From Thermoanaerobaculia bacterium (GTDB taxonomy: Bacteria > Acidobacteriota > Thermoanaerobaculia > UBA5066 > Gp7-AA6), in contig DATFQY010000222.1 of assembly GCA_035263845.1 (NCBI GenBank), forward strand, positions 3,304 through 67,303: a stretch of 64,000 bases of DNA. Direction: 5' to 3'. Shown piece after piece: positions 16,642 through 40,082 of this stretch (the stretch's first letter is position 1; every line of letters begins with the position of its first letter). Under the pieces are notes generated by a model. That model did not search any database. It was not told the origin of the DNA and was given only the letters and a program-made list of their open reading frames with translations. A program made the position numbers and the translations under genes.

Positions 16642-17430
16642 ATGTCAAGCAACAGGAAAAGGCTCTCCGCCCGCCTTTTTCTCGTCAAAGAGATGGTTCT
16701 GCGGGATATCAGGGCCCGGTACGCCGGGTCCCGGCTGGGCATCTTTTGGGCCTTTGCCCAGCCCCTCCTCTGGATCCTCCTTTATGCCTGGGTCTTCGGC
16801 GTCGTCCTCCGGATCCCTGTGGAAAAGGGCTTCTCGACCTTCCCGGAGTTCCTGCTGGCGGGCTTGCTGCCCTGGATGGCGATCCAGGAGGGGATCTCCC
16901 GGGCCTCCACGGTCCTGGCCGACAACGCTGCCATGGTCAAGAAGACCGTCTTCCCGGTCGAGACGCTGGTCCTCTCGGTCGTCTTTGCCGCCGTTGTCAA
17001 CCAGGTCATCGCCTTCGTCATCTACGCCGCCTACCTGGGCTGGCTCGGGCACCTCTCGCTCCCCTGGCTGCTGTTGACCATCCCTGCCCTGGCCGTCCAG
17101 ACCCTGATGACCTTCGGGATCGCCTGCTTCGCCGCGACGGTGACGACTCTCGTCCGGGACGTGGCTCACGGCGTCAACATCGCGCTGACGGTCGTCTTTT
17201 ACGCCACGCCGATCGTCTACCCGCCCTCGATGATCCCGTCGAATTTCCGCTGGGTCCTTTCGGTCAACCCGGTGGCGCACTTAGCGGAGTGGTACCGGCG
17301 GGCCTTCACGCTCCACACCGCTCCCGACGCTTCCTCCGTCCTCTACCTGACGGTGTTTTCCGGCGTCGCCGCAGTCCTCGCCGCGGCCCTCTTCCTGCGC
17401 GCGCGTCCTCACTTCGCGGACCTTCTCTAA
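16642..17430 (+). CDS. wzm: ABC-2-type polysaccharide/O-antigen export permease (Wzm/KpsM/TagG family)
   Basis: It has six hydrophobic segments and an ABC2_membrane signature. The N-terminus, KRLSARLFLVKEMVLRDIRARYAGSRLGIFWAFAQPLL, is characteristic. Confidence 0.9.
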   Translation: MSSNRKRLSARLFLVKEMVLRDIRARYAGSRLGIFWAFAQPLLWILLYAWVFGVVLRIPVEKGFSTFPEFLLAGLLPWMAIQEGISRASTVLADNAAMVKKTVFPVETLVLSVVFAAVVNQVIAFVIYAAYLGWLGHLSLPWLLLTIPALAVQTLMTFGIACFAATVTTLVRDVAHGVNIALTVVFYATPIVYPPSMIPSNFRWVLSVNPVAHLAEWYRRAFTLHTAPDASSVLYLTVFSGVAAVLAAALFLRARPHFADLL

Positions 17431-17542
17431 GGCAGTGTCCGTGTTGAGACGCCGAGAAAAGGGGAAGAATTTCGCGGTCGGGCCGTTTTCAGTGAGCGGT
17501 TTCCTCGGGTTTCCCCACCCCACCCATGAAAGAGGAGGTTCT

Positions 17543-19180
17543 GTGATTCGCACTCGATCCCTGCTCGTCCTCGCCGTGGCGGTGCTCGCGGCATCCTGCG
17601 CCGCCCCTTCCGGCGGGTCCAAGCCCACTGTGGCCTCGGCGCCTCCGACTCCGACGCCGGGCATCATGTCGAGGACCAATCCGAACATCGTCGAGGAAGA
17701 CGAATACCACTTCGTCGAGCGGCTGCCCAAGGAGGAGTACATCCGGGTTGACGAGCGGCACATCCGCCACCCCCTCGTGGGCCCCGCCGTCGAGTTCTAC
17801 AAGGAAGACGACAAGTACTACTACATCTACACGAACAAGAGGAACGCCGAGACCGAGGCGCTGGAGAGGATGCTCAAGCAGTCCCAGACGCCGACCCCGG
17901 CTTCCCCGGCGGCCCCCGGCCAGGCGCCGCCGCCGCCCGCGATGACGCCGACGCCCTCGGGCCCGCCGCTGTCGGACTTCGAGGACCTTCTGCCGCGGCG
18001 CGAAGCCGGGAAGCTGCGCCTGGAGCCGGTCGCGCAGAGCGGCCTTCCCGCGAGCGGGTTGTGGCGCGCCTCCTTCGTCATCCGCGACATCAACGGCGAC
18101 AAGATCCCCGACATCATCGCTCCGCCCTCGCGGCTGGGCGACGCGAAGCTCCACGTCTGGATCGGCGACGGCAAAGGGCACTTCACGCCGTGGCCCGTGC
18201 AGTTCGTCGAGGAGGGCAAGCCCAGCACCACCTTCTCTCTCGACTACGGCGCCGTCGCCGTCGGCGACATCGACCGCGACGGCAAGCTCGACGTCGTCGC
18301 GGCCTCGCACGGCGCCGGGCTCATCTCGCTCTTCGGCGACGGCAACGGCACCTTCCGAATCGTGAGGTCGGGGCTCCCCACGCGCGACTTCTCCTCGCAG
18401 GCGATCACGCTCGTCGACGCGGACGGGGACGGCAAGCTCGACATCGTCGCCGCCGTCGACAACGTGGGCGGCCGTTCCGACGCCCAGGACCAGGTGCGCG
18501 TGTACCTCAACCGCGGGAACCGGTGGCAGTACAAGCAGGACGGGATCGCAGGCGGCTTCTACTCGAACTGCATCCACGCCTGGGACTACGACCGGGACGG
18601 CAAGACGGACATCCTGACGGCCTCCAACTACATCGGCGCGCTAACGCTTCTCTGGAGGAATAACGGCGACGGGCGCTTCGAGCCGATCCGGTTCCCGGCC
18701 ATCGAGATCTACTCGTACCACTTCGCGACGGTGCCCGGCACCTGGGGCAAGCAGCGCGCCTCGGCCTTCGCCGACGCGTACAACATGATCACCAACGATC
18801 CCACCGAGGCGCGGGCGATCGGCATCACCGTCTACAGCTACGAGGGCGGGACCTGGAGCCGCCACCGCGTGTGGCGCAAGAAGGCGGGACAGTCCTCGCA
18901 GTACGCACTGGCCATGGGGGATCTCGACGGCGACGGCCTGGATGACGTCGTCTTCGCCGATACCGAGCAGAACAAGCTGCGGATCTTCTTCCAGAAGCCG
19001 GACGGGACCTTCACGGAGATGGCCGAGAACGAAGAGCCGGTCCTGGACTCGCTCGGGCAGTGGATCGAGCTCGCCGACCTCGACGGGGACGGCCGGCTCG
19101 ACATCGTTCTCTCCAAGACGGTGGCCTCTTACCGTCCCAACGACCAGGGCGGCTGGTCGGTCTGGCTGAACAAGCGCTAA
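17543..19180 (+). CDS. FG-GAP (integrin-alpha-like beta-propeller) repeat lipoprotein
   Basis: It has a GTG start after AAAGAGGAGG and the lipoprotein signal VIRTRSLLVLAVAVLAASC. There are multiple FG-GAP/VCBS-like repeats (DINGDKIPDIIA, DIDRDGKLDVVAASHGAG, DADGDGKLDIVAA, DLDGDGLDDVVFA, DLDGDGRLDIVLS). Confidence 0.8.
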   Translation: MIRTRSLLVLAVAVLAASCAAPSGGSKPTVASAPPTPTPGIMSRTNPNIVEEDEYHFVERLPKEEYIRVDERHIRHPLVGPAVEFYKEDDKYYYIYTNKRNAETEALERMLKQSQTPTPASPAAPGQAPPPPAMTPTPSGPPLSDFEDLLPRREAGKLRLEPVAQSGLPASGLWRASFVIRDINGDKIPDIIAPPSRLGDAKLHVWIGDGKGHFTPWPVQFVEEGKPSTTFSLDYGAVAVGDIDRDGKLDVVAASHGAGLISLFGDGNGTFRIVRSGLPTRDFSSQAITLVDADGDGKLDIVAAVDNVGGRSDAQDQVRVYLNRGNRWQYKQDGIAGGFYSNCIHAWDYDRDGKTDILTASNYIGALTLLWRNNGDGRFEPIRFPAIEIYSYHFATVPGTWGKQRASAFADAYNMITNDPTEARAIGITVYSYEGGTWSRHRVWRKKAGQSSQYALAMGDLDGDGLDDVVFADTEQNKLRIFFQKPDGTFTEMAENEEPVLDSLGQWIELADLDGDGRLDIVLSKTVASYRPNDQGGWSVWLNKR

Positions 19181-19253
19181 CCCATGCGTCCGAAACGAGT
19201 TGACCCTGTCCTCATGATCAGGAAGCATATTTTTCGGAATTTCCTCTTGACAG

Positions 19254-19270
19254 GGGCGCTCCGAGCGCCC
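19254..19270. promoter_or_regulatory. Perfect palindrome GGGCGCTC-C-GAGCGCCC placed between a TTGACA hexamer (19247-19252) and the start region of the downstream secreted-protein gene; candidate operator
   Basis: It was read from the sequence. No T-run follows it, so it is unlikely to be a terminator for the upstream gene. Confidence 0.3.
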
Positions 19271-19430
19271 AAGATGGCCGCAAACCACGGAGGTGCATGA
19301 ACTCCCGGTTAACTCCAATCTTGAAATCAGGTTCTGAAAAACGAGAAAAATGGGAGGTGATGGGATCGCGCGGAGGAAGGAACTCAAGCGTGTTTTTTTC
19401 GCAGTTAACAGTAACGAGGAGATCTCAATA

Positions 19431-20975
19431 ATGAAGAAAACCTTCCTGACGTGTATGGCGGTGGTCGCCGTGCTCGCGATTGCGAGCAGCGCCGGCGCCA
19501 TCACGTGCACCATTGACCAGCGTCCCGCTGCGACGCTGCTCATTCCCTACTTCCAGGCGACGTTCAACGCGGACGGCACCATCCAGGGAACGGGCACGAG
19601 CGCTCTGGACACCCTCGTGACGATCGGCAACGCCTCGGCCGCGCCGATGCTCGCTCACGTCAACGTGTTCAACGAGCGGACCGAGCTCGTCCTCGACTTC
19701 AACATCGCGCTCACCGGCTTCGACATTCAGTCGTTCTCGGTGGCCTCGGTGCTGAGGGGGAACCTGCCGATCACGCCGGTGAACATCAACCACCAGCCCG
19801 AGGTCAAGGACGGCATTCAGGTGACGATCACCGGTGACGTCTGCCAGCGCAACTCGAGCGCGCCGGTCTATCCGTCCGCCGGAGGTTACCTGCGTGTGAG
19901 ACCGACGAGCCCGGCAACGGGTCTCGACAACACACTCGCAACGGTTTCCTATCCCGCCGGGCCGTTCCCGACCGCGTTCCTGTTCTCGGTCCTCGACTCG
20001 CTCGATGCGACCAAGGACACCACGACGTGCGGCGGCACCGACGGCGTCATCACCAACCCGATTCACGGCTACATCACGATCGACCACGCGAACTACTGCA
20101 ACCTCTCCAACCCGTCGGATCCGGCGTACTACACGAACGATGCGATCGGTATGGAGAACAACCTGTTCGGTGACTACATCTACACCTCCGGCGCCGGCGT
20201 CGGCACGGAAGGGTACGCGGCCGTCGCCATCGAGGCGGATGCCTCCCTGGCCGACACCACCGCCGTCCCGACCAACCCCGCCAGCACGGCTCCTGTCGGA
20301 CGCCGCACCTTCTATCGTCGCTACGTGACGGTTGCGGATCCGCTGGGCTGCCTCAACACGTTCCCGGCTCCGCAGTCCGGCTTTGACTGCGGCGGCGGCG
20401 ACCAGCGCGAGCCCCTGGGCCTCAAGTACGCGGCCCGTTGGTTCGATGCGTCGCCTGGCGTTACTTCCAACTTCTACGTGTGGCGTGGATCGGCCGGCTC
20501 CTCCGCGATCAGCGGCGGTCTGGCTGACCTGCTCGGCTTCGCAGTCGGCAAGTGCAACACGTCCGAGCCGACCGTGACCTTGACCTTCTTCGATGAAGAC
20601 GAGAACACGGTTACGCAGGGCGTCTGCCCGTCCCCGTGCTCGCAGCCGACGTTCAACTTCCCGTTGGAGACGCAGCGCACCAACATCTCGGCCTTCTCCC
20701 ACCCCGTGTGGCCGGCCGGCTGGGTGAGCATGTCGTTCTTCAACAACACCGGTCCGCTCGGCGGCAACCTGGATCAGGCGTGGGTTGACTACGAGATCCT
20801 GGGCGCCACCGCGTTCCTCGTTGCCGGAATCCCGGCGGCTCAGCTCGATCCGACGAACTGCCAGCCGCTCGGCGTCTCCTGCACCACGGGTACCGGTTGC
20901 TACGGTCCGACCTCCGGCTCCGGCGTGACGGTCTCTCTGCCCGCCATCCCGGTGATCGTCGGGACCGGCCCATAG
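19431..20975 (+). CDS. Secreted Cys-rich hypothetical protein (514 aa)
   Basis: It has an ATG after AACGAGGAG and the signal peptide MKKTFLTCMAVVAVLAIASSAGA. It carries many Cys residues and no domain I can name. A strong terminator follows. Confidence 0.8.
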   Translation: MKKTFLTCMAVVAVLAIASSAGAITCTIDQRPAATLLIPYFQATFNADGTIQGTGTSALDTLVTIGNASAAPMLAHVNVFNERTELVLDFNIALTGFDIQSFSVASVLRGNLPITPVNINHQPEVKDGIQVTITGDVCQRNSSAPVYPSAGGYLRVRPTSPATGLDNTLATVSYPAGPFPTAFLFSVLDSLDATKDTTTCGGTDGVITNPIHGYITIDHANYCNLSNPSDPAYYTNDAIGMENNLFGDYIYTSGAGVGTEGYAAVAIEADASLADTTAVPTNPASTAPVGRRTFYRRYVTVADPLGCLNTFPAPQSGFDCGGGDQREPLGLKYAARWFDASPGVTSNFYVWRGSAGSSAISGGLADLLGFAVGKCNTSEPTVTLTFFDEDENTVTQGVCPSPCSQPTFNFPLETQRTNISAFSHPVWPAGWVSMSFFNNTGPLGGNLDQAWVDYEILGATAFLVAGIPAAQLDPTNCQPLGVSCTTGTGCYGPTSGSGVTVSLPAIPVIVGTGP

Positions 20976-20986
20976 TCGTTTCTTCT

Positions 20987-21027
20987 GGAGTGGGCGGGAC
21001 GCAAAGTCCCGCCCACTCTTTTTTTCT
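20987..21027 (+). terminator. Rho-independent terminator (GGAGTGGGCGGGAC-GCAAA-GTCCCGCCCACTC followed by TTTTTTT)
   Basis: It is a perfect 13-bp GC-rich stem followed by a T-run. Confidence 0.85.
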
Positions 21028-21213
21028 TAGATCGGAAGGTCTCGTTCCTGAAGAACAGACCCTCACAAGTTAAGCAGAGGTCGCTGAGTCAGCCCGCCGG
21101 CCCGATTTCAGATTCCTCCTAACTACATCCATGAAGAGGAATATGAAATCCGGCTCCGGAAACGACCGATGCAGTCAATCCGCCGAAGGCATTCCCAGGA
21201 GGTTTGTCCACTC

Positions 21214-24200
21214 ATGAACGTCGCTCCCCACATACTGTCGCGTCGCCGCCGTTTGCAGGCCTGGCCTCTTTTCCTCGTCGCGCTCGTCTTGCTGTCCTCC
21301 ACCGTGGCCAGCGCGCAGACCGTCCAGGTCAACACCGGGGGAATCGTCAGCATCACCGGTGTTCCGCCGATCTACAACGACCGGTACGTGATGCAGAAGA
21401 CGGACTTCGGATTTCTCTGGCTCGACACGGTCGCCCTGCAGGGCGGAATTGTCCAGGTCGAGGCCAAGTGCGGCACCGGTCAGCCGACTCCGGTGACCAA
21501 TATCTACGTGATCGGCGACTGCAACGGCATCACCAGCGTCGACACCGCCGGGACCCGCGTTGTCGCACGCCAGCTCTCCGGACAGTGCGGCGTGGCGACG
21601 CTCGGTTGCGGAGGAGGGCGCACGGACGGGACGGGTTTCTTCGAGTTCAAGCTCGGGACCTGGGAGTTCGTGGGACCGACGACCCAGGACATCCTGAGCC
21701 CCTCGACGCAAACCGCCGACCTCGCCGGACGGACCTGGAAGGTCACGGCCGCGGGAGACGGCAAGAACTTCACGTGGCAGGCCAGCGGCAATCCCAACAC
21801 GCCCCCCACGGCCTCCGCCTCGGCGACGAACCTCTCCGCCGCCAACCGCACCGACAAGACGAACTACTACGGCGACCAATGGCAGTTGAAGGACACCTCG
21901 GCCACCGTGTCGCCGATCACCGAGGTGGATTGGGACTTCATCTACAACGGCTCGTCGTTCGTCAAGGACGAGGGCGGCCCTCCCGCCTCAGAAGGAACGA
22001 TCACGGGCTTCTTCCCTTGCGATCCCAAGGGACAGATCGCCGGCGACATCCGCTTCGGGACCAACTGCATCCAGAGCCTCAACCTGTCGAACCCGGCCGG
22101 GGGCGGGAGCTACCGCTTCGCGATGCAGTCGGCCAACGTGAACGGGATCAGCACCAACACGTTCGTTTCCTCTTTCATCGCCGTTCAGTGCGCCCAGGCC
22201 AACATCGTGGGCTATACCGGAGCCACCGGGACCTGCGCCAAGAGCGGCGGGACGTTGAACGTCCTGATCGGCGGCGTCGCCGACGCGAGCGCGACGCAGG
22301 GCAACCCGGTGCAGTTCGACTGGACGTTCCCGGGGACCGGGACGCCGAACGTCTCGGGGATGACTCCCGGCGTGCCGACCGGCGCCACGACGTTCACGCT
22401 GACGGTGACCTATCCGGGCGGGTTCCAGGCGACGGCCTCGGGCAACGTCGTCCAGGCGAGCCTCGTCGCGGCCTTCTCGGTCGTGCCGAATCCCGTCCTG
22501 ATCAACACTCCCCTGACTTTGACCAACCAGATGCAGAAGGCGACGGGAGCGACGCTCAACTCGGTGGACTATCTCTTCAACCCCGGCGCCTGCACGTCGC
22601 CGCCCCCCATCGGGACCAACCCGGTCGGCGGGACGTTCTTGAACGTCGGCGGCACCGCCACGGTCACCGCGCCCTCGGCCAAGGGCGACTTCTGCCTGTA
22701 CCTGAAATACGGCTACACGCCGCCGAGCGGCCCCGCCCAGACGCAGACCGTCTCGGCCTCCGTCACGACGACCGACTGGGTGGCCAACCCGCAGATCCTG
22801 ATCAATCCGTCGGTGTTCTGCTTCGGTCCCTGCTCGCTGTCGATCGGGACCACCTACAGCCTCTCGGACAACGAGAACATCCCGCTGAACCCCCATCCAC
22901 CCGCTGCGTGGGACCTGAACGGCAACTCCATCGGGACCTCGCAGGACGCCAACTCGCCGATCACGTGGACGCCGAATTCCGCCTGCAGCAATTGCACCCT
23001 GCGGGTCACGGTGAACGGATCGTCCACGACGCTACCCGTCAACATCTCCGCGGCGCAGCCGACTCCGGTCCCGACGCCTCCGGGTCCGACTCCGACTCCG
23101 CCCATCATCGGAGGCGGAAACCTTTCGGTCAGCGTCACCGGGCCGAGCAACGGCGCCAAGAACGTTCCTCTGACGTTCTCGGCGAACGCGTCGGGAGGCT
23201 CCGGGGGCTACAGCTTCTCGTGGCAGTGCGACTTCAACCCGCTCGGGAGCTTCGCCGCTCTCGGACAGACGGCGACCTGCACGTACGCGACCTCGGGCGC
23301 GCACACCATCGTCGCCATGGTCCGGGATTCGAGCGGATCGACGGCGCTGAGCCCCAACTTCAGCGTCACGATCGGCGGGCTGGGGAATCCGTCAGTCCAG
23401 AACACCCTTTCCGGCAACGGAGTCACGCAGAACGTCTTCAACGGACGGTGGACCGCCCCGACGAGCACCCCGATCACGTTCTCGGCGAACGAAGCCAACG
23501 CCGCGACCTGGACCTGGTCGTTCGGCGACGGGCAGACCGGCACGGGCCGGACCGCGACCCACTCCTACTCCGCCTCGGGCCCCTACGCCGCGACCCTCAC
23601 GGTGACGGGCGACGAGGTCAACACCTCGGGCACCGGGTCGGCCACCATCAACATCGACATCAGCGGCCCGCCGGGACCGTCGGCGGCGTTCACCGTCACC
23701 GGCGCGACGACGCTCGGGCCGGACTCCTACGAGGTCGAGGCCTTCACGACCATGACCTTCACGGCCACGGAGACGAAGGCAAACTCCTACGCCTGGGACT
23801 TCGGCGACGGCACCGCCACGGGCAAGACCGTGACGCACGCCTTCTCCACAGCGGGATCCCACACGGCCACGCTGACAGTCACCGGCGACGGAACGACCAC
23901 GATCGGGACGAGGAGCGGCAACGCGTCCTTCACGGTCGATCCGGTCAAGTTCCGCGCGATCATCGTTCCGGGCGCGGCGCACCTCGACCTGGGCGCGGAC
24001 GTCTGGGGCACCGACGTGACCGTCAGCAATCCCGGCACCGGCAACCTGACAGTCAGCCCCGCCTTCGTCGCTTACTCCGACAGCGGCGGCGACGTGCCGG
24101 ATCTTTCGCAGGTCTCCTACGATCCGAAGCTGACCTTCCAGCTCGCGCCGGGAGCCTCCTGGTCGCAGGTGGACGTGGTCAAGTTCTTGAACGGCGGAAG

Positions 24201-25512: not shown

Positions 25513-25532
25513 GCGGCGAGAATCGCACTCCC

Positions 25533-25566
25533 GACGCCCCGGCTCCGGCCGGGGCGTCTTTTTTTG
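25533..25566 (+). terminator. Rho-independent terminator (GACGCCCCGGC-tccg-GCCGGGGCGTC followed by TTTTTTT)
   Basis: It is a perfect 11-bp stem followed by a T-run. Confidence 0.85.
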
Positions 25567-25652
25567 GAGCGATCGGGGCGATGGGGCGATGTTCTGGCGC
25601 CCCGGACCGTACACCGGTCTAGAATCGCAGATCGGAGAGGGTCGTTTTTTGA

Positions 25653-26762: not shown

Positions 26763-26763
26763 G

Positions 26764-28017: not shown

Positions 28018-28033
28018 GCCGGACCCTGGCTCC

Positions 28034-30223: not shown

Positions 30224-30228
30224 AGCCG

Positions 30229-32288: not shown

Positions 32289-32292
32289 TGGA

Positions 32293-33243: not shown

Positions 33244-33280
33244 CACGCCTCGAAACGGTTACACTCCCGCTCACGTAGAA

Positions 33281-35215
33281 ATGCAGGACGACGACCCACC
33301 GATGGAGGAAGCCTCGCTGATCCCGCACCGCGCGAGCGAGCTCGCCGGCGCCCGCATCCTCGTCCTGGCCGCCCATCCCGACGACGAAAGCCTCGGCGCG
33401 GGAGGAATCCTCGCCTTGAACTCGGAGAAGGCGGAGGCCATCCGGGTCTGGATCGCCACCGCGGGCACGCGGCAGGAAGGCGCGGGGGAGCAAGCGGACT
33501 ACGGGGAGAGGCGGCGGGCGGAGTCCGTCGAGGCGGCGAAAGTCCTTGGCGTGGAGCCGCCCACGTTCGGCACGCTGCCGGACCGGGAGCTCGCGGCGAG
33601 AACCGGCGAGCTCGAGACGGAGATCGGGAAGCTCGTCCGGGATTTTCGGCCGGATCTGCTCCTCTGCCCCTCGCCCGTGGAGATCCATCCCGACCACCGC
33701 GCGCTCGCCGAGGCGGCCTGGGGCCGGCTCTCCTCCTCGCGCCCGACGGATCCGGACCACGGCGATTACGCTTTCCTGCGCCTCGCCTTCTACGAGATCT
33801 CCCACCCGATCCTGCCCAACGTCCTCGTGGACATCTCGCCGGCCGCCGCCAGAAAGGAGAAGGCGCTGGCGGCGTACGAGTCGCAGCAGGCGGTGCGCGA
33901 CTACGCCGGCGCCGTCGGAGGCCTGAACGCGTACCGCCGGCTGACCCTCGAGGGGCGCGGGCCCGTCGAGGCCTTCCGGGTGGTGGACTACGGCGAGGCC
34001 TCGACGCGGTCGCTCGAGGAGTTCCGCAGGTCCATCGGTCCGTCCTTCGTCGCCGACGGCGAGCGCGGGCCGGCGCCCGTCTCGGTCGTCGTGCGGACGC
34101 GCAACCGGCCGGCGCTCCTCCGGGAGGCGCTCGACAGCCTCCGGCGCCAGACGGCGCGTCCCCGCCAGGTCGTGGTCGTCAACGACGGCGGCGGCTCGGT
34201 CGCGGAGATAGCCTCCTCCTTCCGGGACTCGTTCGAAGTGGCCCTCGAGGAGCTGCGGGATCGCAAGGGCCGATCGCGAGCCGCCAACCGCGGAGTCGCC
34301 CTGGCGAGCGAGGAGCTGGCCGCGTTTCTCGACGACGACGACGTCGCCTACCCCGACCACCTCGAGCGGCTGGTGCGCGCGCACCGGGCGGGCCCCGAGC
34401 CGGTCGTCTATTCCGACGCGGTCACCGCGGTCTACGGCCGTCGCGACGAGCAGCCGGAGGCGATCCACCGGTCGCTCCAGTACTCGCTCGATTACGATCC
34501 GGACTTCCTGCTGCTGGCCAACTACATACCGCTCCACACTCTCCTTCTTCCCCGCTCGCTCTACAGGGGAACCGGAGGGTTCGACGAGAAGCTCGACTAC
34601 TCCGAGGACTGGGACTTCCTGATCCGCCTGTCCTTCGAGACCTCCTTCCGTCACCTGCGCGCGGTCACCTGCGAGTACCGGGTCTTCGACACGGGCGGCG
34701 GAGAGCCGGGCAAGGTCCGGGCGGGGGAGGATCCCTTCCAGAAGGCCCGCGAGGTCATCTACGAGCGCTATGCCGGCCGTCGCACGCCGGAGGGGCTCGG
34801 GCGGGTGATCGACCGGCTTCGTTCCCAGATCTCGTACTGGGCCGGCCGCGACTCGATCTCGCAGGGCGAGTTGAAGTACCAGCGCGACTCCCACCGAGGC
34901 CTCATCGCGACGCTCGAGAGGACCGGGCAGCAACTGGGAAACGCCGAGGCCGAGCGGGCCCGGCTCGCTGCCGATTCCGAGCACGTTCGCCGGCGCGCTG
35001 CCGATCTCGCGCTGGAGCGGGACCGGCTCCTCGCCGAGAACGAGCTCGTCCACAGCCGCGTCGAGAGGCTCTTCTCCTCCAACGAGGACTACCACCGCAA
35101 GACCACGGAGCTCCAGGCCGAGGTCGCCCGGTTGACCGGGATCCTCGATCAGATCTACGCCTCTCGGACCTGGAAGCTTCACCTCTTCGCCGAGCGCGTG
35201 CGGGGCCGGAGTTGA
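33281..35215 (+). CDS. Fusion protein: PIG-L/LmbE-family N-deacetylase, a GT2 glycosyltransferase, and a C-terminal coiled coil
   Basis: The LmbE motifs are LVLAAHPDDESLGAGG and HPDHRALAEAA. The GT2 domain is marked by VSVVVRTRNRPALLREALDSLRRQT...VVVVNDGGG...LDDDD. The C-terminus is heptad-rich. Confidence 0.85.
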   Translation: MQDDDPPMEEASLIPHRASELAGARILVLAAHPDDESLGAGGILALNSEKAEAIRVWIATAGTRQEGAGEQADYGERRRAESVEAAKVLGVEPPTFGTLPDRELAARTGELETEIGKLVRDFRPDLLLCPSPVEIHPDHRALAEAAWGRLSSSRPTDPDHGDYAFLRLAFYEISHPILPNVLVDISPAAARKEKALAAYESQQAVRDYAGAVGGLNAYRRLTLEGRGPVEAFRVVDYGEASTRSLEEFRRSIGPSFVADGERGPAPVSVVVRTRNRPALLREALDSLRRQTARPRQVVVVNDGGGSVAEIASSFRDSFEVALEELRDRKGRSRAANRGVALASEELAAFLDDDDVAYPDHLERLVRAHRAGPEPVVYSDAVTAVYGRRDEQPEAIHRSLQYSLDYDPDFLLLANYIPLHTLLLPRSLYRGTGGFDEKLDYSEDWDFLIRLSFETSFRHLRAVTCEYRVFDTGGGEPGKVRAGEDPFQKAREVIYERYAGRRTPEGLGRVIDRLRSQISYWAGRDSISQGELKYQRDSHRGLIATLERTGQQLGNAEAERARLAADSEHVRRRAADLALERDRLLAENELVHSRVERLFSSNEDYHRKTTELQAEVARLTGILDQIYASRTWKLHLFAERVRGRS

Positions 35216-35237
35216 GGCCGATGGGCGCCTTCCCGCG

Positions 35238-36482
35238 GTGACGCGCCGCGTCGTCATCCTGGCCCCGGAGCCGATCCGGCCGAAGATGGCCGGCATGGGA
35301 ATCCGGGCGCTCGAGCTCGCCCGGACGCTGCGCGGGGAGTTCGACGTGCGCCTGCTCGTCGGCAACGACCCGGCCGAGGCCGCCGCGGCCGCCGGCGACA
35401 TCCCGGTCGTGCCAGCGCCTCCGGGAGGGCTCGCCGCCGCGGCCGTCGGCGCCGACGCGGCCGTCGTTTCCGGCCACGCCGCGAACTGGTGGTTTCACCA
35501 GGTGCCCGACGTGCCCGTCGCCGCGGACCTCTACGACCCGTTCTTCGTCGAGAACCTCCATTACGCGCCGACTCTCGGCGAGGAGACCGCGGTCCACGAC
35601 CGCGCGACGCTCTCGCTGGCCCTCTCGCGCGCGGACTTCTTCCTCTGCGCCTCGCCCGAGCAGCGCCTCTTCTACGCGGGCGCGCTCTACGCGGCGGGGA
35701 GGATCGGGCCGCGCAACTTCCCGGAGGATCCCGTCCTCGCGGGTCTCCTCGCGGTCGTTCCCTTCGGAGTCCCCGCGGAGCCAGCCGCCGGGGACCGCGC
35801 CGCGGGCCGGCGGCTCCTCGACGTTTCGCCCGACGTTCCCCTCGTGCTGTTCGGGGGAATCTACGACTGGTACGAGCCGGATTTGCTCCTCGAAGCCTGG
35901 CCCGGAGTGCTGCGCCGCTGCCCGGACGCGAAGCTGCTCTTCTTCGAAAACCCCAACCCGGAGACGACGCCCCAGCGCGTGTACGCCAGGGCGAGGGAGC
36001 GCGCGAGGGCGATCGATCCCCAGGGCAAGTCCGTCCTCTTTTCCCCCTGGAGGGCGTACGCCTCGCGCGCCGACCTCTACGCGGGCGTGGACCTGCTCGC
36101 CTCGATCTCGACGGAGGGGCTCGAGCGGGACCTCGCTTTCCGCACGCGGCTTCTCGACGCGGCCTGGGGAGGCGTCCCCTCGGTCTCCGTCGCCGGGGGC
36201 CCGCTCGCGAAGGAGCTCGAGCAGGCGGGCGCCGGACGGCGGGTCGCGGGCACCGCCTCCGCCCTCGCCGAGGCGGTCATCCAGATGCTGTCGGACCGGG
36301 AGGAGCGCGGGAAGGCGTCCGCAGCCGCGCGCCGCTTCGCCGCCTCCCGCGCCTGGCCGGCCGTCGCCGCGCCGCTGGCTGCCTGGTGCCGCGAAGCCCG
36401 CGTGAACCCCGGACGGCTTCCTCTTCCCGCCGGCAAGGAGAGCCACTCGCTCTGGCGCCGCCTCCGAAGGAAGGTGCGTTAG
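35238..36482 (+). CDS. Glycosyltransferase, GT1/GT4-like (GT-B fold)
   Basis: It has a GTG start. The N-terminus (VVILAPEPIRPKMAGMGIRALELA) and C-terminal half are GT-B-like. Confidence 0.8.
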   Translation: MTRRVVILAPEPIRPKMAGMGIRALELARTLRGEFDVRLLVGNDPAEAAAAAGDIPVVPAPPGGLAAAAVGADAAVVSGHAANWWFHQVPDVPVAADLYDPFFVENLHYAPTLGEETAVHDRATLSLALSRADFFLCASPEQRLFYAGALYAAGRIGPRNFPEDPVLAGLLAVVPFGVPAEPAAGDRAAGRRLLDVSPDVPLVLFGGIYDWYEPDLLLEAWPGVLRRCPDAKLLFFENPNPETTPQRVYARARERARAIDPQGKSVLFSPWRAYASRADLYAGVDLLASISTEGLERDLAFRTRLLDAAWGGVPSVSVAGGPLAKELEQAGAGRRVAGTASALAEAVIQMLSDREERGKASAAARRFAASRAWPAVAAPLAAWCREARVNPGRLPLPAGKESHSLWRRLRRKVR

Positions 36483-36492
36483 TCTTCCGGCG

Positions 36493-37677
36493 ATGAAGCG
36501 GCCCGACCTCTCGGTCATCGTCGTTCACCACCGGGGACAGGAACATCTGATCGAGGCGCTCGACGCCCTGGCGGCCGCCTCGGGGGGTCCCTCTCTCGAG
36601 ACGATCCTGGTGGACAACACCGCCGGGCATCCGATCGAAGAGGTGCTCCGTCGCCACCCCACGATCCGCCGCGTCGCCGCGGGCCGAAACTCGGGCTTCG
36701 CGGCCGGGTGCCGCCTCGGCGCCGAAGCGGCCCGGGCGCCGCTGCTCGCCCTCGTCAACGACGACGCGGCGGTCGAGCCGCAGGCGCTCGGGTTCCTCGC
36801 GACGTCGCTCTCCGAGGCGCCGGAGGACGTCGTCGCGGTGGCCGGCCGGCTGGCGGATGTGTCGGGTGAGAAGAACGATTTCTCCGACGGCTTCCTGACC
36901 TTCGACGGGCACGCGTTCCAGAAGGACGTGGGGCGGCCCCTCGGCGCGCTCCCCGCCTCGGCCCCCGGGGAAGAGCGTCTGTTCGCCTGCGGCGGCCTGA
37001 TGGCGGTCCGCCGCCGGGAGTTTCTCGAGTCCGGGTTCGACGACGACTACTTCGCCTATCTCGAGGACGTGGATTTCGGCTGGAGGCAGTGGATCTTCGG
37101 CAAAAGGATTCTCGCGGAGCCTCGGGCCGTGGCGCGTCACCGCGGTGGAGCGACCGGCGAGGCCCTCGGCGTCTTCTCCCGCGGCTTCCTCTTCGAGAAG
37201 AACGCCTTTTCGACGGCCTACAAGAACTTCGACGCCGCGCACTTCCGGGCCTTCATGCCGGCCGTGCTGGCCGCCTTCGTCGGCCGGATCTCGGCGATGC
37301 TCGACGCGCGCAACCCTTCCGCGGAGGAGTTGAAGCGGGATCCGTACCTCGAGCCCACCCGCGATTCCGCGGGCTGGCGGCGGCTCTTCGGCATCGGCGC
37401 CAACGGGGCGGGTCGCGTCGCGATTGAGGACCCGCTGACGATCGCCCATCTCAAGGCGCTCCTCTGGATCCACCGCCACCACGAGTCGCTCGCCGCCAAG
37501 CGCCGCGCCGTGCAGGCGGGGCGGCGCCGGTCGGACTCGGAGATCTTCGCGAAGTTCCCGCTCCGCCTCGTGCCTACGTATCCCGGCGACGACCGGTTCG
37601 ACTCGGAGTTCTTCCGCGCCTTCCTCCCGGAGTCGCCGCCGCTCCTGCGGACGACGCTCGCGGAGATCTTCTCGTGA
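36493..37677 (+). CDS. Glycosyltransferase, GT2 family
   Basis: The N-terminus is LSVIVVHHRGQEHL. It has an LVNDDAAVEP (DxD) motif and GT2 hallmarks. Confidence 0.85.
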   Translation: MKRPDLSVIVVHHRGQEHLIEALDALAAASGGPSLETILVDNTAGHPIEEVLRRHPTIRRVAAGRNSGFAAGCRLGAEAARAPLLALVNDDAAVEPQALGFLATSLSEAPEDVVAVAGRLADVSGEKNDFSDGFLTFDGHAFQKDVGRPLGALPASAPGEERLFACGGLMAVRRREFLESGFDDDYFAYLEDVDFGWRQWIFGKRILAEPRAVARHRGGATGEALGVFSRGFLFEKNAFSTAYKNFDAAHFRAFMPAVLAAFVGRISAMLDARNPSAEELKRDPYLEPTRDSAGWRRLFGIGANGAGRVAIEDPLTIAHLKALLWIHRHHESLAAKRRAVQAGRRRSDSEIFAKFPLRLVPTYPGDDRFDSEFFRAFLPESPPLLRTTLAEIFS

Positions 37678-38627
37678 GCGTCGCGTTCTCCGTCGTCATC
37701 CCGACCTACCAGCGCCCCGAAACGCTCGGCCGCGTCCTGGAGTCGCTCGGCCGCCAGTCCGACGCCCCCGAGTTCGAGGTCGTCGTCGTGGACGACGGCT
37801 CGCGCGACCGAACCGCCGCGGTCCTCCGCGCGGCGGCGCCCCCCTATCCCTTCCGGTTCTTCCGCCAGGAGAACTCGGGACCCGCCGCGGCCCGCAACCG
37901 CGGCGTCGAGGAGGCGCGCGGCCGCTTCATCCTCTTCCTCGGCGACGACACGGTCCCGGAGCCGGAGCTGCTCTCGGTGCACGCCCGCGCCCACGCCGAG
38001 CCCCGCCCGCACCCGGCGGCCGTCCTCGGATACACGACCTGGCCCTACGAGCGGAGAGTCACGCCCTTCCTCGACCACATCAACGAGGACGGCCTGCAGT
38101 TCGGCTACCGGCTGATCCAGGACACCGAGTCGGTGCCGTTCAACTTCTTCTACACCTCGAACATCTCGCTGCCCCGGGCGCTGCTCCTCTCGGCCGGACT
38201 CTTCGACACGACATTTCCCCACGCCGCGTGGGAGGACATCGAGGTCGCCTACCGCATGATGAAGGCGGGGATGCGGATCGTCTACCGGCCCCGCGCCGTC
38301 GCCCGGCACTACCACGAGATCACGTTCGCGTCGTTCCGGCGGCGTCAGGAGAAGGCCGGCGAGGCCGCGGCGATCTTCTACGAGAAGCACCCGGAGCTCG
38401 GCCCGTTCCTGGCGGTGCCGCAGGCGCTCGAGTTCCGCGAAGTCGGAGGCGTCCGGGAGTGGGCGACACGGACCTGGGCCGGCCTCTGCGAGAGGTGGGA
38501 GGTTCCCGGGGGCAGAAAAGCCCTCGACCTCGTCTTACGGCGGGACTACCTGCGAGGCCTCAGCCGGGAGCTCCGCAAGCGGCAAGCGGCGCCGGTGGAG
38601 GCGCGATCCTTCGGCACTTCCGGGTGA
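37674..38627 (+). CDS. Glycosyltransferase, GT2 family
   Basis: The N-terminus is FSVVIPTYQRPETLGRVLESL. It has VVVDDGSRD and FLGDD motifs. Its GTG start overlaps the upstream stop. Confidence 0.85.
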   Translation: MSVAFSVVIPTYQRPETLGRVLESLGRQSDAPEFEVVVVDDGSRDRTAAVLRAAAPPYPFRFFRQENSGPAAARNRGVEEARGRFILFLGDDTVPEPELLSVHARAHAEPRPHPAAVLGYTTWPYERRVTPFLDHINEDGLQFGYRLIQDTESVPFNFFYTSNISLPRALLLSAGLFDTTFPHAAWEDIEVAYRMMKAGMRIVYRPRAVARHYHEITFASFRRRQEKAGEAAAIFYEKHPELGPFLAVPQALEFREVGGVREWATRTWAGLCERWEVPGGRKALDLVLRRDYLRGLSRELRKRQAAPVEARSFGTSG

Positions 38628-38733
38628 CGATGTGACCTTTTCGGAGGTCAGTGAGAGGTTTGGAGGCTTTGGATGTCAGTTCTCAACTCTTTGAGAGGAA
38701 TGGGTTTGTCGCTGTCCTGATGGTTTGGCACTC

Positions 38734-38749
38734 TGGTCCTGGTCTTGCT
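38734..38749 (+). promoter_or_regulatory. Possible sigma-54 promoter TGGTCC-N5-TTGCT (GG/GC spacing correct, 2 mismatches in the -24 box) 27 nt upstream of the PEGA-protein ATG
   Basis: It was read from the sequence. It is weaker than the exact match at 12049. Confidence 0.25.
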
Positions 38750-38775
38750 ATTCATTCACGCGGGAGGCGACTGCG

Positions 38776-39804
38776 ATGAAACGACAGGGACTGATTTATC
38801 CGCTGGCGTTCGCCCTGACGCTGCTGCTTGCTGCGGCCGCGCAGGCTGCTCCGCGCGGTGGAGGCGGTGGCGGGCACGGCGGCGGAGGCCACGGCGGCGG
38901 GGGCGGCCATGGAGGTCATGGCGGTCACGGCGGCCATGGCCACGGTGTCGTGGTCGTCGGCGGCGGATGGGGTTGGGGGTGGGGCTGGGGCTGGGGTTAT
39001 CCCGGCTACTACGGCGGCTACTACGGCGACGGGTACGGTTACGGCCCGGGCGCCGGCTACGGATGGGCCGCGATCGATACCGACGTTGCTCCCGAGGAGG
39101 CCGTGGTCTACCTCGATGGCAGACCGATCGGCACCGCCGATGATTTCGACGGCTATCCCGACTACCTCTTCCTGGGGCCGGGCCACTACAAGATCGAGTT
39201 CCGGCTCGACGGTTACCAGCCCCTGGTGAAGGAAGTGGACGCGCAACCCGGGATGTACATCGACTTCACGGATAAGATGGCGCACATCCCGGGCGTGAAG
39301 CCCAATCCCGCCAACGACGCCAAGATCGAGGGCCCGGTACAGCGCTACTTCATGAAGAGGCAGCGCGGCGGGAATCGCGGCACCATGCCGGCTCCCAACG
39401 GCCCGGACGGATACGGCCACGGGGATGTCGAGGTCGGGCCGCCAGGACAGCCTCCCGCCGACGGAGGTGACGACGGTTACGATCAGCCTCCGCCGCCTCC
39501 GGCGCGCGCGCCCTCGGCTCAGCCCCGGAACGGCAACGGCGATTCGTGGCGCGGCAATCAGTACCAGCGGGTCCAGGCCCGGACCCGGCTCTACCTGACG
39601 GTCGAGCCTCCGGACTCCGCCGTTTACATCGATAACCGGTTCGTGGGAACGGGCGAGGAGGTCAACTCCATCGACCGCGGCCTCACGGTGACGCCGGGCC
39701 ACCACGTGGTGACGGTGTCGAGGCCGGGCTTCCGCGAGAAATCGCTGGAGGTGACGGTCGAGGAAGGCAAGGCCGGCAACCTGGAGATCTCGCTCACGAA
39801 GTAG
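38776..39804 (+). CDS. Secreted protein with a His/Gly-rich low-complexity region, GW repeats and two PEGA domains
   Basis: The signal peptide is MKRQGLIYPLAFALTLLLAAAAQAAP. The low-complexity stretch is GGGGGGHGGGGHGGGGGHGGHGGHGGHGHG, followed by GWGWGWGWGWGYPGYYGGYYGDGYGYG. Two PEGA-like beta-sandwich domains are present (AVVYLDGRPIGTAD...GHYKIEFRLDGYQPLVKEV and AVYIDNRFVGTGE...GHHVVTVSRPGFREKSLEV). A strong terminator follows. Confidence 0.85.
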   Translation: MKRQGLIYPLAFALTLLLAAAAQAAPRGGGGGGHGGGGHGGGGGHGGHGGHGGHGHGVVVVGGGWGWGWGWGWGYPGYYGGYYGDGYGYGPGAGYGWAAIDTDVAPEEAVVYLDGRPIGTADDFDGYPDYLFLGPGHYKIEFRLDGYQPLVKEVDAQPGMYIDFTDKMAHIPGVKPNPANDAKIEGPVQRYFMKRQRGGNRGTMPAPNGPDGYGHGDVEVGPPGQPPADGGDDGYDQPPPPPARAPSAQPRNGNGDSWRGNQYQRVQARTRLYLTVEPPDSAVYIDNRFVGTGEEVNSIDRGLTVTPGHHVVTVSRPGFREKSLEVTVEEGKAGNLEISLTK

Positions 39805-39825
39805 CTCAAGGTATTGTCGAAACCC

Positions 39826-39857
39826 CGGAGCGGGGCCCGGCCCCGCTCTTTTTTTGT
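39826..39857 (+). terminator. Rho-independent terminator (GAGCGGGG-cccgg-CCCCGCTC followed by TTTTTTT)
   Basis: It is a GC-rich hairpin followed by a T7 run. Confidence 0.8.
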
Positions 39858-40082
39858 GCGTTTTTTGGCCCTTGCGTGGCGGAATGTCGAATCTTGTATA
39901 CTCGGGCCCACTCGAAGGAGTCGCTCGGGGGGGTGGGTCTGGGCGATGGCTTTTCCGATGTCTGTCACGCCTTGACCAGTCCGTACTCTCAGGTCCGCTC
40001 TCTCTCAGGTCCCTCCGATACCGTCTCCAGATCCGAGCCTCGGGGGGCTCCTTCGAGCTTTCCCGCATCCCCGTCCCCTCTT

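Follow-up and report, generated by a model that had tools for sequence, protein, structure and literature searches.

In a genome of the Thermoanaerobaculia, the two halves of a Wzm/Wzt-type exporter are separated by three genes for secreted proteins, and this split is conserved in the lineage and is not a recent insertion. The locus consists of 15 genes, all on the + strand (16642-39849). Judged from its sequence and its recurrence, it is a genuine glycan assembly and export cluster of the Thermoanaerobaculia (uncultured soil Acidobacteria), class-wide and vertically conserved. The same arrangement was found in about 80 species-representative genomes and is therefore far beyond chance; the full gene order is kept down to a Wzt identity of 59%. 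The enzymes of the locus are 55-84% identical between species, whereas hypervariable O-antigen loci vary strongly. The whole is best explained as an envelope-glycan locus, a variant of the ABC-transporter-dependent pathway with dedicated extracytoplasmic proteins, and we give this reading an even chance of being correct.

Methods

The window is the whole 64-kb stretch of DNA analysed, in which about 45 ORFs were scanned. Genes were called with a GC3 frame plot and Pfam scans. Genes upstream of wzt were counted in 50 species-level loci from Thermoanaerobaculia/Acidobacteriota with enough flank, and those downstream of wzt in 56 species loci. The organisms compared are all uncultured MAGs.

Results

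Table 1. Genes and terminators of the locus and its flanks
Feature	Position	Strand	Evidence
XRE-type HTH regulator, divergent from wzm	16169-16561	-	Pfam HTH_3, 1.7e-13
wzm, ABC-2 permease	16642-17430	+	ABC2_membrane, 1.3e-18
FG-GAP/VCBS beta-propeller lipoprotein, Pro/Thr-rich tether	17543-19180	+	FG-GAP_3, 2.6e-40
Cys-rich secreted protein (CysR), lineage-restricted family	19431-20975	+	Signal peptide MKKTFL...
Intrinsic terminator after CysR	20987-21029	+	14-bp stem, 10 GC pairs, T-run
Secreted PKD-domain protein, 1432 aa	21214-25512	+	PKD_4, 3.1e-27; 3 domains
Intrinsic terminator after PKD gene	25533-25568	+	11-bp stem, 10 GC pairs, T-run
Radical SAM with C-terminal Fe-S (SPASM/Twitch-type) domain	25653-26762	+	Radical_SAM, 5.3e-20; SPASM, 8.6e-7
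wzt, ABC ATPase with C-terminal carbohydrate-binding-type domain	26764-28017	+	ABC_tran, 4e-21
729-aa protein, two SAM-methyltransferase domains	28034-30223	+	Pfam stretches at residues 169-327 and 545-642
GT4 glycosyltransferase	30229-31239	+	Glycos_transf_1, 1.2e-16; 51/56 loci
GT2 (a)	31236-32288	+	Glycos_transf_2, 1.3e-11; 56/56 loci
GNAT acyltransferase, Eis-like	32293-33243	+	Acetyltransf_9, 3e-11; 56/56 loci
PIG-L/LmbE de-N-acetylase::GT2::C-terminal long helix	33281-35215	+	PIG-L, 7.8e-27; GT2, 4.7e-20; 56/56 loci
Divergent GT-B glycosyltransferase	35238-36482	+	Glyco_trans_1_4, 28.8 bits; 56/56 loci
GT2 (b)	36493-37677	+	Glycos_transf_2, 7e-11; 55/56 loci
GT2 (c)	37674-38627	+	Glycos_transf_2, 1e-29; 51/56 loci
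Secreted PEGA-domain protein	38776-39804	+	PEGA, 1.1e-11; 2 stretches; signal peptide
Intrinsic terminator closing locus, after PEGA gene	39827-39859	+	10-bp stem, 8 GC pairs, T-run
holB, tmk (next genes)	Beyond closing terminator	-	Opposite strand to locus

Exporter and secreted proteins

Every gene named in the original prediction was found on the + strand, and its claim of a Wzm/Wzt-type glycan locus was borne out, with both exporter proteins homologous to solved polysaccharide exporters. Wzm has six hydrophobic segments, and its closest solved structures are KpsM (5.7e-19), TarG, and the Wzm of A. aeolicus (1.9e-17). Wzt matches A. aeolicus Wzt in the PDB (2.7e-66). On Pfam Wzt_C the window's Wzt scores only 21.7 bits, under the cut-off of 30.4; 39 of 41 Wzt orthologs match this model. 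In the AF2 model the C-terminal domain is all-beta, and Foldseek matches the model to the complete A. aeolicus Wzt, CBD included, over 386-394 columns, in support of the predicted carbohydrate-binding-type fold. The conservation of this domain nearly equals that of the NBD (0.73-0.77 vs 0.78) and does not track the presence of the methyltransferase.

The wzm gene lies about 8-9 kb upstream of wzt (complete wzm in 12 loci) and 4-112 bp from the FG-GAP lipoprotein gene. A recent insertion of the intervening genes had been named beforehand as the finding that would make this an ordinary O-antigen or capsule locus, and the comparison gave the opposite result: all 50 species-level loci have the Cys-rich and PKD genes upstream of wzt and in its orientation, and 48 of the 50 have the FG-GAP gene there too. 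In all loci that reach far enough, the HTH regulator gene adjoins wzm, with 66-92% identity; we infer only that it is a candidate regulator of the locus.

The FG-GAP ORF spans 17435-19180, with a likely start at 17543, and a pattern search found a signal peptide and lipobox-type Cys in 28 of 45 orthologs. The CysR ORF opens at 19350, the true start being 19431, and the gap of 250 bp ahead of the gene may hold its own promoter. Mature CysR has 8 invariant Cys; a Pfam scan gave no match, and one domain resembles TM1070/ASRT and CBM-like sandwiches. In the case of the PKD protein, PDB matches are restricted to the PKD domains and include 1l0q, a surface layer protein; the N- and C-terminal regions have no assignment, and a Pfam scan of the C-terminal 512 aa gave no match. 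Two of its modules are weakly alike (pairwise E 0.004), and the protein evolves fast, with about 37% identity and lengths of about 1260-1680 aa. Pro/Thr-rich linkers occur in both the FG-GAP and PKD proteins. The PEGA protein contains a low-complexity region (Gly/His and Gly/Trp/Tyr), and its gene follows the last GT2 gene in every locus extending far enough.

Transcription units

The strong terminators predicted for the Cys-rich and PKD genes are present, a hairpin with a T-run at both (20987-21019 and 25533-25558), and the locus ends at the PEGA gene and a further such terminator (39827-39849), as had been proposed; the limits in Table 1 reach slightly further downstream. An equivalent of the terminator after CysR was found in 46 of 53 orthologous loci, as against 7 of 49 between wzm and the FG-GAP gene. 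That after the PKD gene is kept in 32 of 50 loci, compared with 6 of 83 after wzt. A search for hairpin and T-run terminators from the radical-SAM gene to the last GT2 gene found none. The conserved terminators thus bound three units: wzm to CysR with the FG-GAP gene between, the PKD gene alone, and the radical-SAM gene through to the PEGA gene.

Transferases and tailoring enzymes

Six glycosyltransferases are encoded, none with a TM segment. The run had been described as overlapping genes; two 4-bp overlaps exist, and otherwise the genes are mostly separated by gaps of 4-38 bp. The longest ORF at the GNAT gene (32391-33278) was rejected, and GC3 analysis fixes the frame given in Table 1. The enzyme first labelled GT1 is indeed a glycosyltransferase, but a divergent GT-B with only a weak family match. 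Of all enzymes in the run it is the best conserved, at 65-84% identity for most loci, and it has a weak PDB match (6e-4) to 3c4q/3c48, deposited as 'predicted glycosyltransferases', which we take to be C. glutamicum MshA. GT2 (c) matches chondroitin synthase (9e-25) and PglI in the PDB; it has no TM helices and is therefore not GtrB/ArnC-like.

The PIG-L::GT2 protein resembles, in the PDB, PglI-like GT2 enzymes and TT1542/BshB-like deacetylases. Alone among the cluster proteins, it has a Pro-free heptad-like segment of 92 aa (550-641), with a median of 88 aa in its orthologs (n=54) and a weak DUF3450 match at residues 548-627. By this composition, periodicity, and match, it is the only candidate for a coiled-coil protein in the locus.

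The protein downstream of wzt was predicted to be a double methyltransferase and a WbdD-like chain terminator. The two domains are present in this genome, but the second is unique to it among the loci compared: residues 1-368 are matched in 47 of 56 loci, and the second half in 0 of 56 on the same strand. The reading as a WbdD-like terminator was not supported. The best PDB match is 3cc8 (2.3e-24), the PDB search gave no WbdD match or other detectable WbdD similarity, no coiled coil was found in the protein, and the gene is missing from 7 of the 56 species, with Wzt C-domain conservation independent of it. In other loci the methyltransferase has a single domain (L003, 381 aa) or is part of a fused MT-GT4-GT2 protein (L002, 982 aa), and a 2OG-Fe(II) oxygenase gene takes its place between wzt and the transferases in L073 and L076.

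The radical-SAM gene had been assigned to the inserted secreted block, which does not hold. It lies past the PKD terminator and 2 bp from wzt; across 50 loci it is directly upstream of wzt in 40, within the GT run in 5, and missing in 5. Fusions within its family are of the types MT+rSAM, GT2+rSAM, and GT4+GT2+rSAM. The gene thus belongs with the cytoplasmic transferases, not with the secreted-protein block. The enzyme has ten invariant Cys and about 76% identity across species. Its only PDB relative (3e-6 with a profile) is BtrN, a sugar-type radical-SAM dehydrogenase (PMC9012708), and it is a candidate glycan-tailoring enzyme.

Among the about 45 ORFs of the window, we found no priming transferase or sugar-nucleotide gene, as predicted, and no Wzy_C-type ligase/oligosaccharyltransferase or GT-C enzyme. 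Nor do the neighbouring genes encode a component for export that spans the periplasm or lies in the outer membrane.

Discussion

All the cytoplasmic components fit an O9a/CPA-type pathway, and the locus could specify an ordinary LPS 'common antigen', for which a WaaL from elsewhere would ligate the glycan to lipid A-core and Lpt would carry it, the secreted-protein genes being unrelated neighbours. In E. coli, the classical ABC-transporter-dependent O-antigen systems rely for priming on WecA, whose gene lies outside their O-antigen cluster; thus, an ordinary O-antigen locus may itself be missing the priming enzyme and ligase. With their own terminators, the CysR and PKD genes can also be expressed separately. 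However, order and strand are kept in 50 of 50 species over the whole range of Wzt identity. The methyltransferase and radical-SAM genes, by contrast, move or drop out, which argues for selection on the linkage. Furthermore, wzm is apart from wzt yet adjoins the lipoprotein gene, rarely with a terminator between. Synteny, however well kept, does not by itself prove that the secreted proteins work with the glycan. We nevertheless consider unrelated neighbours unlikely, and we infer that the FG-GAP, CysR, PKD, and PEGA proteins are surface partners of the exported glycan.

Such a partnership could be protein glycosylation, with an oligosaccharyltransferase from elsewhere placing the exported lipid-linked glycan on these four proteins to give a glycoprotein surface layer. 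The invariable linkage of the secreted-protein genes to glycan genes, their conserved strong terminators, as expected of abundant structural proteins, the Pro/Thr-rich linkers, and the PKD and PEGA domains, known in surface-layer proteins (the PKD match to 1l0q among them), all point this way. The slg clusters of Geobacillus and Paenibacillus use Wzm/Wzt with an MT-GT-GT fusion, WsaE (PMC2943079), an architecture shared by the fusion in L002. But slg clusters encode the O-OTase and priming enzyme in the cluster or locus (PMC2943079), and the present locus and the 64-kb window contain neither, with no Wzy_C/PglL/WsaB-type or PglB-type transferase; moreover, a Cys-rich protein and a lipoprotein are unlike lattice-forming S-layer proteins. 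This explanation seems doubtful to us. Far less probable still is that the radical-SAM/SPASM enzyme is a maturase of CysR (thioether or formylglycine-type) whose product the ABC transporter serves. SPASM enzymes are known above all for maturing peptides (PMC10114670), and CysR is encoded 4.7 kb upstream, but CysR is present in 5 of 5 loci without the radical-SAM gene, and that gene relocates to the GT run. The fusion partners in its family are glycosyltransferases and methyltransferases rather than RiPP recognition or protease modules, no NCBIfam peptide-maturase model reached its cut-off, and the only PDB relative is a sugar-type dehydrogenase. The Sec signal peptide and invariant Cys of CysR are consistent with ordinary disulfides.

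In the envelope-glycan pathway that we prefer, the soluble cytoplasmic transferases (GT4, four GT2 modules, and the divergent GT-B) would build the glycan on a polyprenyl carrier primed by a transferase encoded outside the locus. The PIG-L module would de-N-acetylate an amino sugar, which the GNAT enzyme would probably re-acylate, and tailoring would vary with lineage, by the SAM methyltransferase, the BtrN-like radical-SAM enzyme, or, in some species, the 2OG oxygenase. The C-terminal binding domain of Wzt would read a conserved terminal feature of the finished chain, which Wzm/Wzt would then export. In characterised systems, coiled-coil proteins mark the terminator (PMC11231755). Here the terminal feature would more likely come from PIG-L::GT2, with GNAT, than from the methyltransferase, because PIG-L::GT2 is in 56 of 56 loci and has the sole long heptad-like helix, and the Wzt C-domain is indifferent to the methyltransferase. 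Outside the cytoplasm, the system would have its own dedicated half, formed by the FG-GAP lipoprotein, Cys-rich beta-sandwich protein, PKD protein, and PEGA protein, which would receive, bind, or anchor the glycan on the cell surface after export.

Organization of the locus

A GC3 frame plot and Pfam/NCBIfam scans of the window (G+C about 69%) delimited a single co-directional block at 16642-39849. It begins with wzm, followed by the genes for an FG-GAP lipoprotein, a Cys-rich secreted protein (CysR), a 1432-residue secreted PKD protein, a radical-SAM/SPASM enzyme, Wzt, and a 729-residue protein with two methyltransferase domains. It continues with GT4, GT2 (GT2a), GNAT, a PIG-L de-N-acetylase fused to GT2 (PIG-L::GT2), a divergent GT-B, two more GT2 enzymes (GT2b and GT2c), and a secreted PEGA protein. 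The GNAT frame is not the longest ORF at its position. The block is flanked by a divergent XRE-type regulator gene upstream and by holB/tmk on the opposite strand downstream. The XRE-type gene is among the most conserved neighbours of the locus, with up to 92% identity (in the related locus L003), and is a candidate dedicated regulator.

Positions of the features discussed, with their conservation in 50 related loci having at least 9 kb 5' of wzt (upstream set) or 56 having at least 9.5 kb 3' of wzt (downstream set)
Feature	Sequence	Position (strand)	Related loci
XRE-type HTH gene	window	16169-16561 (-)	
FG-GAP lipoprotein gene	window	from 17543, most likely start (+)	48/50 upstream set
CysR gene	window	19431-20975 (+)	50/50 upstream set
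PKD gene	window	21214-25512 (+)	50/50 upstream set
PKD residues 906-1432	window	23929-25509 (+)	
radical-SAM gene	window	25653-26762 (+)	upstream set: directly 5' of wzt 40/50; inside transferase run 5/50; absent 5/50
methyltransferase gene	window		49/56 downstream set
GT4 gene	window		51/56 downstream set
GT2a gene	window		56/56 downstream set
GNAT gene	window	32293-33243 (+)	56/56 downstream set
PIG-L::GT2 gene	window	33281-35215 (+)	56/56 downstream set
GT-B gene	window	35238-36482 (+)	56/56 downstream set
GT2b gene	window		55/56 downstream set
GT2c gene	window		51/56 downstream set
PEGA protein gene	window	38776-39804 (+)	
SpoIIE(PP2C)-GAF phosphatase genes	window	284-1951; 41824-44430; 48851-50491	
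HATPase_c_2 protein gene	window	48043-48504	
sigma-54 activator genes	window	3328-5055; 45958-47457	
tRNA gene	window	54281-54355 (-)	
Ser/Thr kinase-PEGA gene	window	57557-59614	
methyltransferase-GT4-GT2 fusion gene	L002	11326-14274	
small methyltransferase gene	L025	16433-17197	
small methyltransferase gene	L036	14326-15168	
2OG-Fe(II) oxygenase gene	L073	12922-13635	
2OG-Fe(II) oxygenase gene	L076	11541-12254	

The CysR, PKD, and PEGA genes are each followed by a strong intrinsic terminator; no such element interrupts the run of genes that starts with radical SAM and ends with GT2c. The hairpins are conserved after CysR (46/53 loci) and after PKD (32/50). The corresponding counts for the control genes were 6/83 (wzt), 2/59 (GT-B), and 7/49 (FG-GAP). 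The locus therefore consists of three conserved units, namely [wzm-FG-GAP-(CysR)], [PKD], and [rSAM-wzt-...-GT2c-(PEGA)]. The original prediction that a secreted PEGA protein and a terminator close the locus agrees with these results. An Rfam search of the long intergenic gaps gave no regulatory RNA, and an unrelated tRNA gene was the sole Rfam match in the window; a sigma-70 promoter scan yielded nothing usable.

No candidate for a priming transferase, for nucleotide-sugar synthesis, for a ligase/OTase of the Wzy_C type, or for a GT-C enzyme was found among the approximately 45 ORFs scanned in the whole window; the original prediction had already noted the lack of the initiating transferase and of sugar-nucleotide genes. 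GT2c was considered as a polyprenyl-phosphate glycosyltransferase of the GtrB/ArnC type and rejected, as it lacks C-terminal TM helices.

Regulatory genes are unusually dense near the locus. Three SpoIIE(PP2C)-GAF phosphatases, which also contain FHA or PDZ domains, an anti-sigma-type HATPase_c_2 protein, and two sigma-54 activators are encoded in the window, as is a Ser/Thr protein kinase whose C-terminal domain makes it the second PEGA-domain protein there.

Conservation and the separation of wzm and wzt

Wzt has thousands of homologs. Identity to the window Wzt is 72% or higher throughout the best 120, which, where named, come from metagenome-assembled genomes (MAGs) of Thermoanaerobaculia/Acidobacteriota. 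An exact-sequence look-up with the window Wzt gave no match; a near-identical 36-kb ENA contig (L001) was obtained through the homolog search. A scan limited to one genome per species gave 548 relatives, of which the best 80 loci were again all from Thermoanaerobaculia/Acidobacteriota MAGs. When 16 window proteins were compared with these 80 loci by tblastn, order and strand were unchanged in every part covered by the contigs, including loci with as little as 59% Wzt identity.

In the window, about 9.3 kb separate wzm from wzt. The corresponding distance, measured between the end of wzm and the wzt start, is 8.1-9.2 kb in those 12 relatives whose complete wzm lies inside the 10-kb flank; partial wzm matches were seen at the edge of the upstream flank in many more loci. 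Within this interval are the three conserved genes for secreted proteins, together with two terminators. As these genes and their order are kept across the loci of different species, a recent insertion is excluded, and the split wzm...wzt noted originally is ancestral to the lineage.

Wzt and the candidate chain terminator

Wzm matched PF01061 (67.8 bits; cut-off, 26.9) and, in the PDB, KpsM (5.7e-19), TarG (1.3e-18), and Aquifex aeolicus Wzm (1.9e-17). Wzt matched ABC_tran (4e-21), TarH and TagH in the PDB, and A. aeolicus Wzt (2.7e-66), the last with a sequence match limited to residues 6-246; the NCBIfam TagH and galactan Wzt models matched below their equivalog cut-offs. In an AlphaFold2 model (mean pLDDT 74.9), residues 267-399 are all-beta. 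A Foldseek search with this model placed seven full-length A. aeolicus Wzt chains at the top, with the CBD included in the alignment (386-394 columns, E 2.7e-35), compared with 234 columns at 4e-27 for structures of the NBD alone. Pfam Wzt_C was matched in 39 of 41 orthologs (best 4.2e-10), although the window Wzt itself scored 21.7 bits, below the cut-off of 30.4. The extra C-terminal domain attributed to Wzt at the outset thus has a predicted CBM-like fold, that is, a carbohydrate-binding-type beta-sandwich, for which sugar binding is predicted. Its cross-species pairwise identity (0.73-0.77) is about that of the ATPase domain (0.78), which implies that its ligand is conserved. The locus belongs to the broad ABC-transporter-dependent family, and its cytoplasmic half probably works like a CBM-gated pathway of this kind.

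The proposal of a WbdD-like double methyltransferase did not survive the comparison. Residues 1-368 of the 729-residue protein are conserved in other species (47/56), but 55/56 related loci lack the second methyltransferase domain, which has no same-strand counterpart elsewhere, and the gene is missing altogether from 7/56. L003 encodes a single-domain methyltransferase of 381 residues, and L002 encodes a 982-residue methyltransferase-GT4-GT2 fusion, which has the MT-GT-GT module order of WsaE, an S-layer glycan enzyme of Geobacillus stearothermophilus (PMC2943079). In L073 and L076, a gene for a 237-residue 2OG-Fe(II) oxygenase lies between wzt and the transferase genes, without a methyltransferase gene there; an unassigned ORF is directly 5' of it in L073. 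WbdD was not among the 33 PDB matches of the methyltransferase at E<=0.01, the best being 3cc8; Pfam detected class-I methyltransferase domains only, with no kinase, and no long helix was found, the longest Pro-free segment being 40 residues. The protein is not of the WbdD family and is at most a functional analogue. A methyl cap read by the Wzt C-domain was also rejected, since the identity of this domain is 0.72-0.75 in loci with the methyltransferase and 0.73 in those without it; the class of remaining loci in this comparison also included methyltransferase-positive ones whose starts overlap. A methyltransferase adjoining wzt, then, need not be a chain terminator.

In characterised systems, the terminator is carried on a coiled-coil ruler protein (PMC11231755). 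The sole long helix predicted in the locus is in PIG-L::GT2, where residues 550-641 form a Pro-free, heptad-periodic segment of 92 residues (median 88 in 54 orthologs), making this protein the only candidate coiled-coil "ruler". Its layout of catalytic modules, helix, and short C-terminal tail resembles that of terminators of the WbdD/WbbB type. We know of no terminating activity for PIG-L/GT2 modules. Because of this helix and the universal conservation of PIG-L::GT2 and GNAT, we propose PIG-L::GT2 as the cap installer: this protein would add the conserved terminal feature, an amino sugar that is de-N-acetylated or re-acylated, and methylation would be optional.

The radical-SAM enzyme

Only 2 bp separate the radical-SAM gene from wzt, and the PKD terminator is 5' of the radical-SAM gene. 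Few proteins of the locus are as well conserved as the radical-SAM enzyme (about 76-80% identity). The enzyme matched PF04055 (72.7 bits) and PF13186 (29.6 bits), both above the cut-offs. The CX3CX2C motif (C100-x3-C104-x2-C107) is invariant, and together with a C-terminal Cys-rich domain it places the protein in the SPASM/Twitch subfamily. Seven further invariant Cys residues, including C292, C314, C315, C360, and C363, could bind one or two auxiliary clusters. In five species the gene has been relocated into the transferase run; in the two such loci examined (L025 and L036), an extra small methyltransferase gene is located 3' of it.

With a profile of the orthologs, 167 cluster representatives were retrieved at E<=1e-30, a number that rises to 1153 at 1e-10. 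Five relatives (P0367, P0370, P0395, P0420, and P0488) are fusion proteins, two with a SAM-methyltransferase and one each with an FkbM-methyltransferase, GT2, and GT4+GT2. These fusions suggest a widespread, so far uncharacterised family that acts on glycans; no description of its function was found in the searched literature. Among solved structures, the sole relative is BtrN, which has a Twitch domain and catalyses the oxidation of an aminocyclitol (PMC9012708). The present enzyme shares with BtrN-type Twitch dehydrogenases the CX3CX2C cluster, a C-terminal domain with a Cys-ligated auxiliary cluster, and a carbohydrate-type context, but the similarity is weak (29.6 bits, core only), and it differs in a 90-residue N-terminal extension and the seven extra invariant Cys residues.

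A role as maturase of CysR was considered and rejected. None of the NCBIfam maturase models came near its cut-off (best, spiro-SPASM, 46 versus 250 bits), the fusion partners are glycosyltransferases and methyltransferases, and the presence of the enzyme is uncoupled from CysR, which is kept where the radical-SAM gene is absent. From this persistence of CysR, the position in the transferase run, the fusions, and the kinship with BtrN, the enzyme is predicted to tailor the glycan or a sugar.

Secreted proteins

The FG-GAP lipoprotein combines a beta-propeller with a Pro/Thr-rich tether; a signal peptide and a lipobox-type Cys were found by pattern in 28/45 orthologs. CysR represents a lineage-restricted family of 457 homologs with no annotation and 8 invariant Cys residues. 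Its mature N-terminus is nearly invariant (I-T-C-T-x-D-x-R-P-A-A-T-L-L), and the C-terminal end is also conserved (...P-x-I-P-x-[IV]-V-G-T-G-P), with no TM helix after it; these ends matched no known sorting signal that we could name. The PKD protein is fast-evolving, and its N- and C-terminal regions have no Pfam or PDB match. Its residues 906-1432 comprise two weakly similar modules (pairwise E 0.004), each starting with V-x-G-A-[AS]-H-L-D...W-x-T-D-[VL]-x-[VI]-x-N. An outer-membrane beta-barrel, suggested by the C-terminal Phe of this protein, was rejected, since the terminal residue is not conserved among orthologs. In the PEGA protein, a Gly/His run (GGGGHGGGGHGGGGGHGGHGGHGGHGHG) is followed by GW/GY repeats (GWGWGWGWGWGYPGYYGGYYGDGYGYG) and then by two PEGA domains.

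The CysR and PKD genes are linked to the glycan genes in 50/50 loci and the FG-GAP gene in 48/50, and Pro/Thr-rich linkers occur in the FG-GAP and PKD proteins. As surface or periplasmic beta-rich proteins, they could bind, anchor, or carry the glycan, and their features fit each of these roles equally. No OTase is encoded near them in the window, unlike in the Gram-positive slg clusters (PMC2943079).

Comparison with known systems

As in E. coli O9a, K. pneumoniae O3, O5, O12, O4, and O7, and A. aeolicus, Wzm is paired with a Wzt carrying a predicted C-terminal beta-sandwich binding domain. The locus also shares with O9a-type loci a soluble multi-GT assembly line, a SAM methyltransferase adjoining wzt, and the lack of a priming enzyme in the locus. 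In one protein a predicted long helix comes after the catalytic modules, a layout that recalls the coiled-coil terminator/ruler proteins (PMC11231755). The locus differs in the secreted-protein genes and terminators that separate wzm from wzt, in being conserved throughout a class rather than varying with serotype, and in a Wzt C-domain about as conserved as the NBD. Moreover, the methyltransferase has neither a kinase nor a coiled coil and 7/56 species do without it, the candidate coiled-coil protein combines a PIG-L deacetylase with GT2, and a radical-SAM enzyme is in the operon.

The original prediction had suggested S-layer glycosylation. The slg clusters of G. stearothermophilus and Paenibacillus alvei likewise use Wzm/Wzt to export a lipid-linked glycan, are linked to surface-protein genes, and have a methyl-capping enzyme, the counterpart of which is the WsaE-type fusion in L002. 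There, wzm lies next to wzt or overlaps it, and the cluster itself encodes the O-OTase (WsaB/WsfB) and the priming enzyme WsaP and contains the rml genes (PMC2943079). The locus and the window contain none of these slg-defining genes (WsaB/WsfB of the Wzy_C type, WsaP, or nucleotide-sugar genes including rml); furthermore, the host is a diderm acidobacterium and the target proteins are putative. By their defining features, the locus is neither a WbdD system nor an slg cluster.

Lineage-conserved, rather than strain-variable, glycans exported by Wzm/Wzt are represented by the CPA of Pseudomonas aeruginosa and by mycobacterial galactan. In mycobacteria, wzm and wzt are also non-adjacent, with one GT gene between them. 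CPA is present in P. syringae as well (PMC7820976). The present locus resembles both systems in its conservation and mycobacteria in the separation, which here consists of three secreted-protein genes. The set of PIG-L::GT2, GNAT, and radical SAM has no known counterpart in the CPA or mycobacterial galactan loci, and the galactan exporter models NF050108 and NF050109 were matched far under their equivalog cut-offs (59 versus 380 and 181 versus 400 bits).

Significance

The locus is unusual in its class-wide conservation, the ancestral interleaving of three secreted-protein genes, the glycan-associated radical-SAM family, and the candidate terminator PIG-L::GT2. No description of this gene arrangement was found in the searched literature, the coverage of which was partial. 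A reading that joins these features is a conserved glycoprotein or glyco-anchored surface layer, in which a Wzm/Wzt-exported glycan, tailored by the new radical-SAM family and bearing a de-N-acetylated or re-acylated amino-sugar cap set by the PIG-L::GT2 ruler, would be handed directly to the FG-GAP, CysR, and PKD proteins. We regard this joint reading as unlikely. If true, it would represent a diderm ABC-dependent glycan pathway with a periplasmic or surface acceptor module encoded between the transporter genes, as well as a previously undescribed type of chain-terminating cap.

Thermoanaerobaculia were retrieved only as metagenome-assembled genomes, and nothing on their cell envelope was found in the searched literature. 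As the locus is among the most conserved multi-gene blocks in these genomes, it probably encodes a class-defining envelope polymer. It is also a natural setting for testing how glycans of ABC-transporter-dependent pathways are received on the outside of the membrane, a process well understood only for LPS and capsules.
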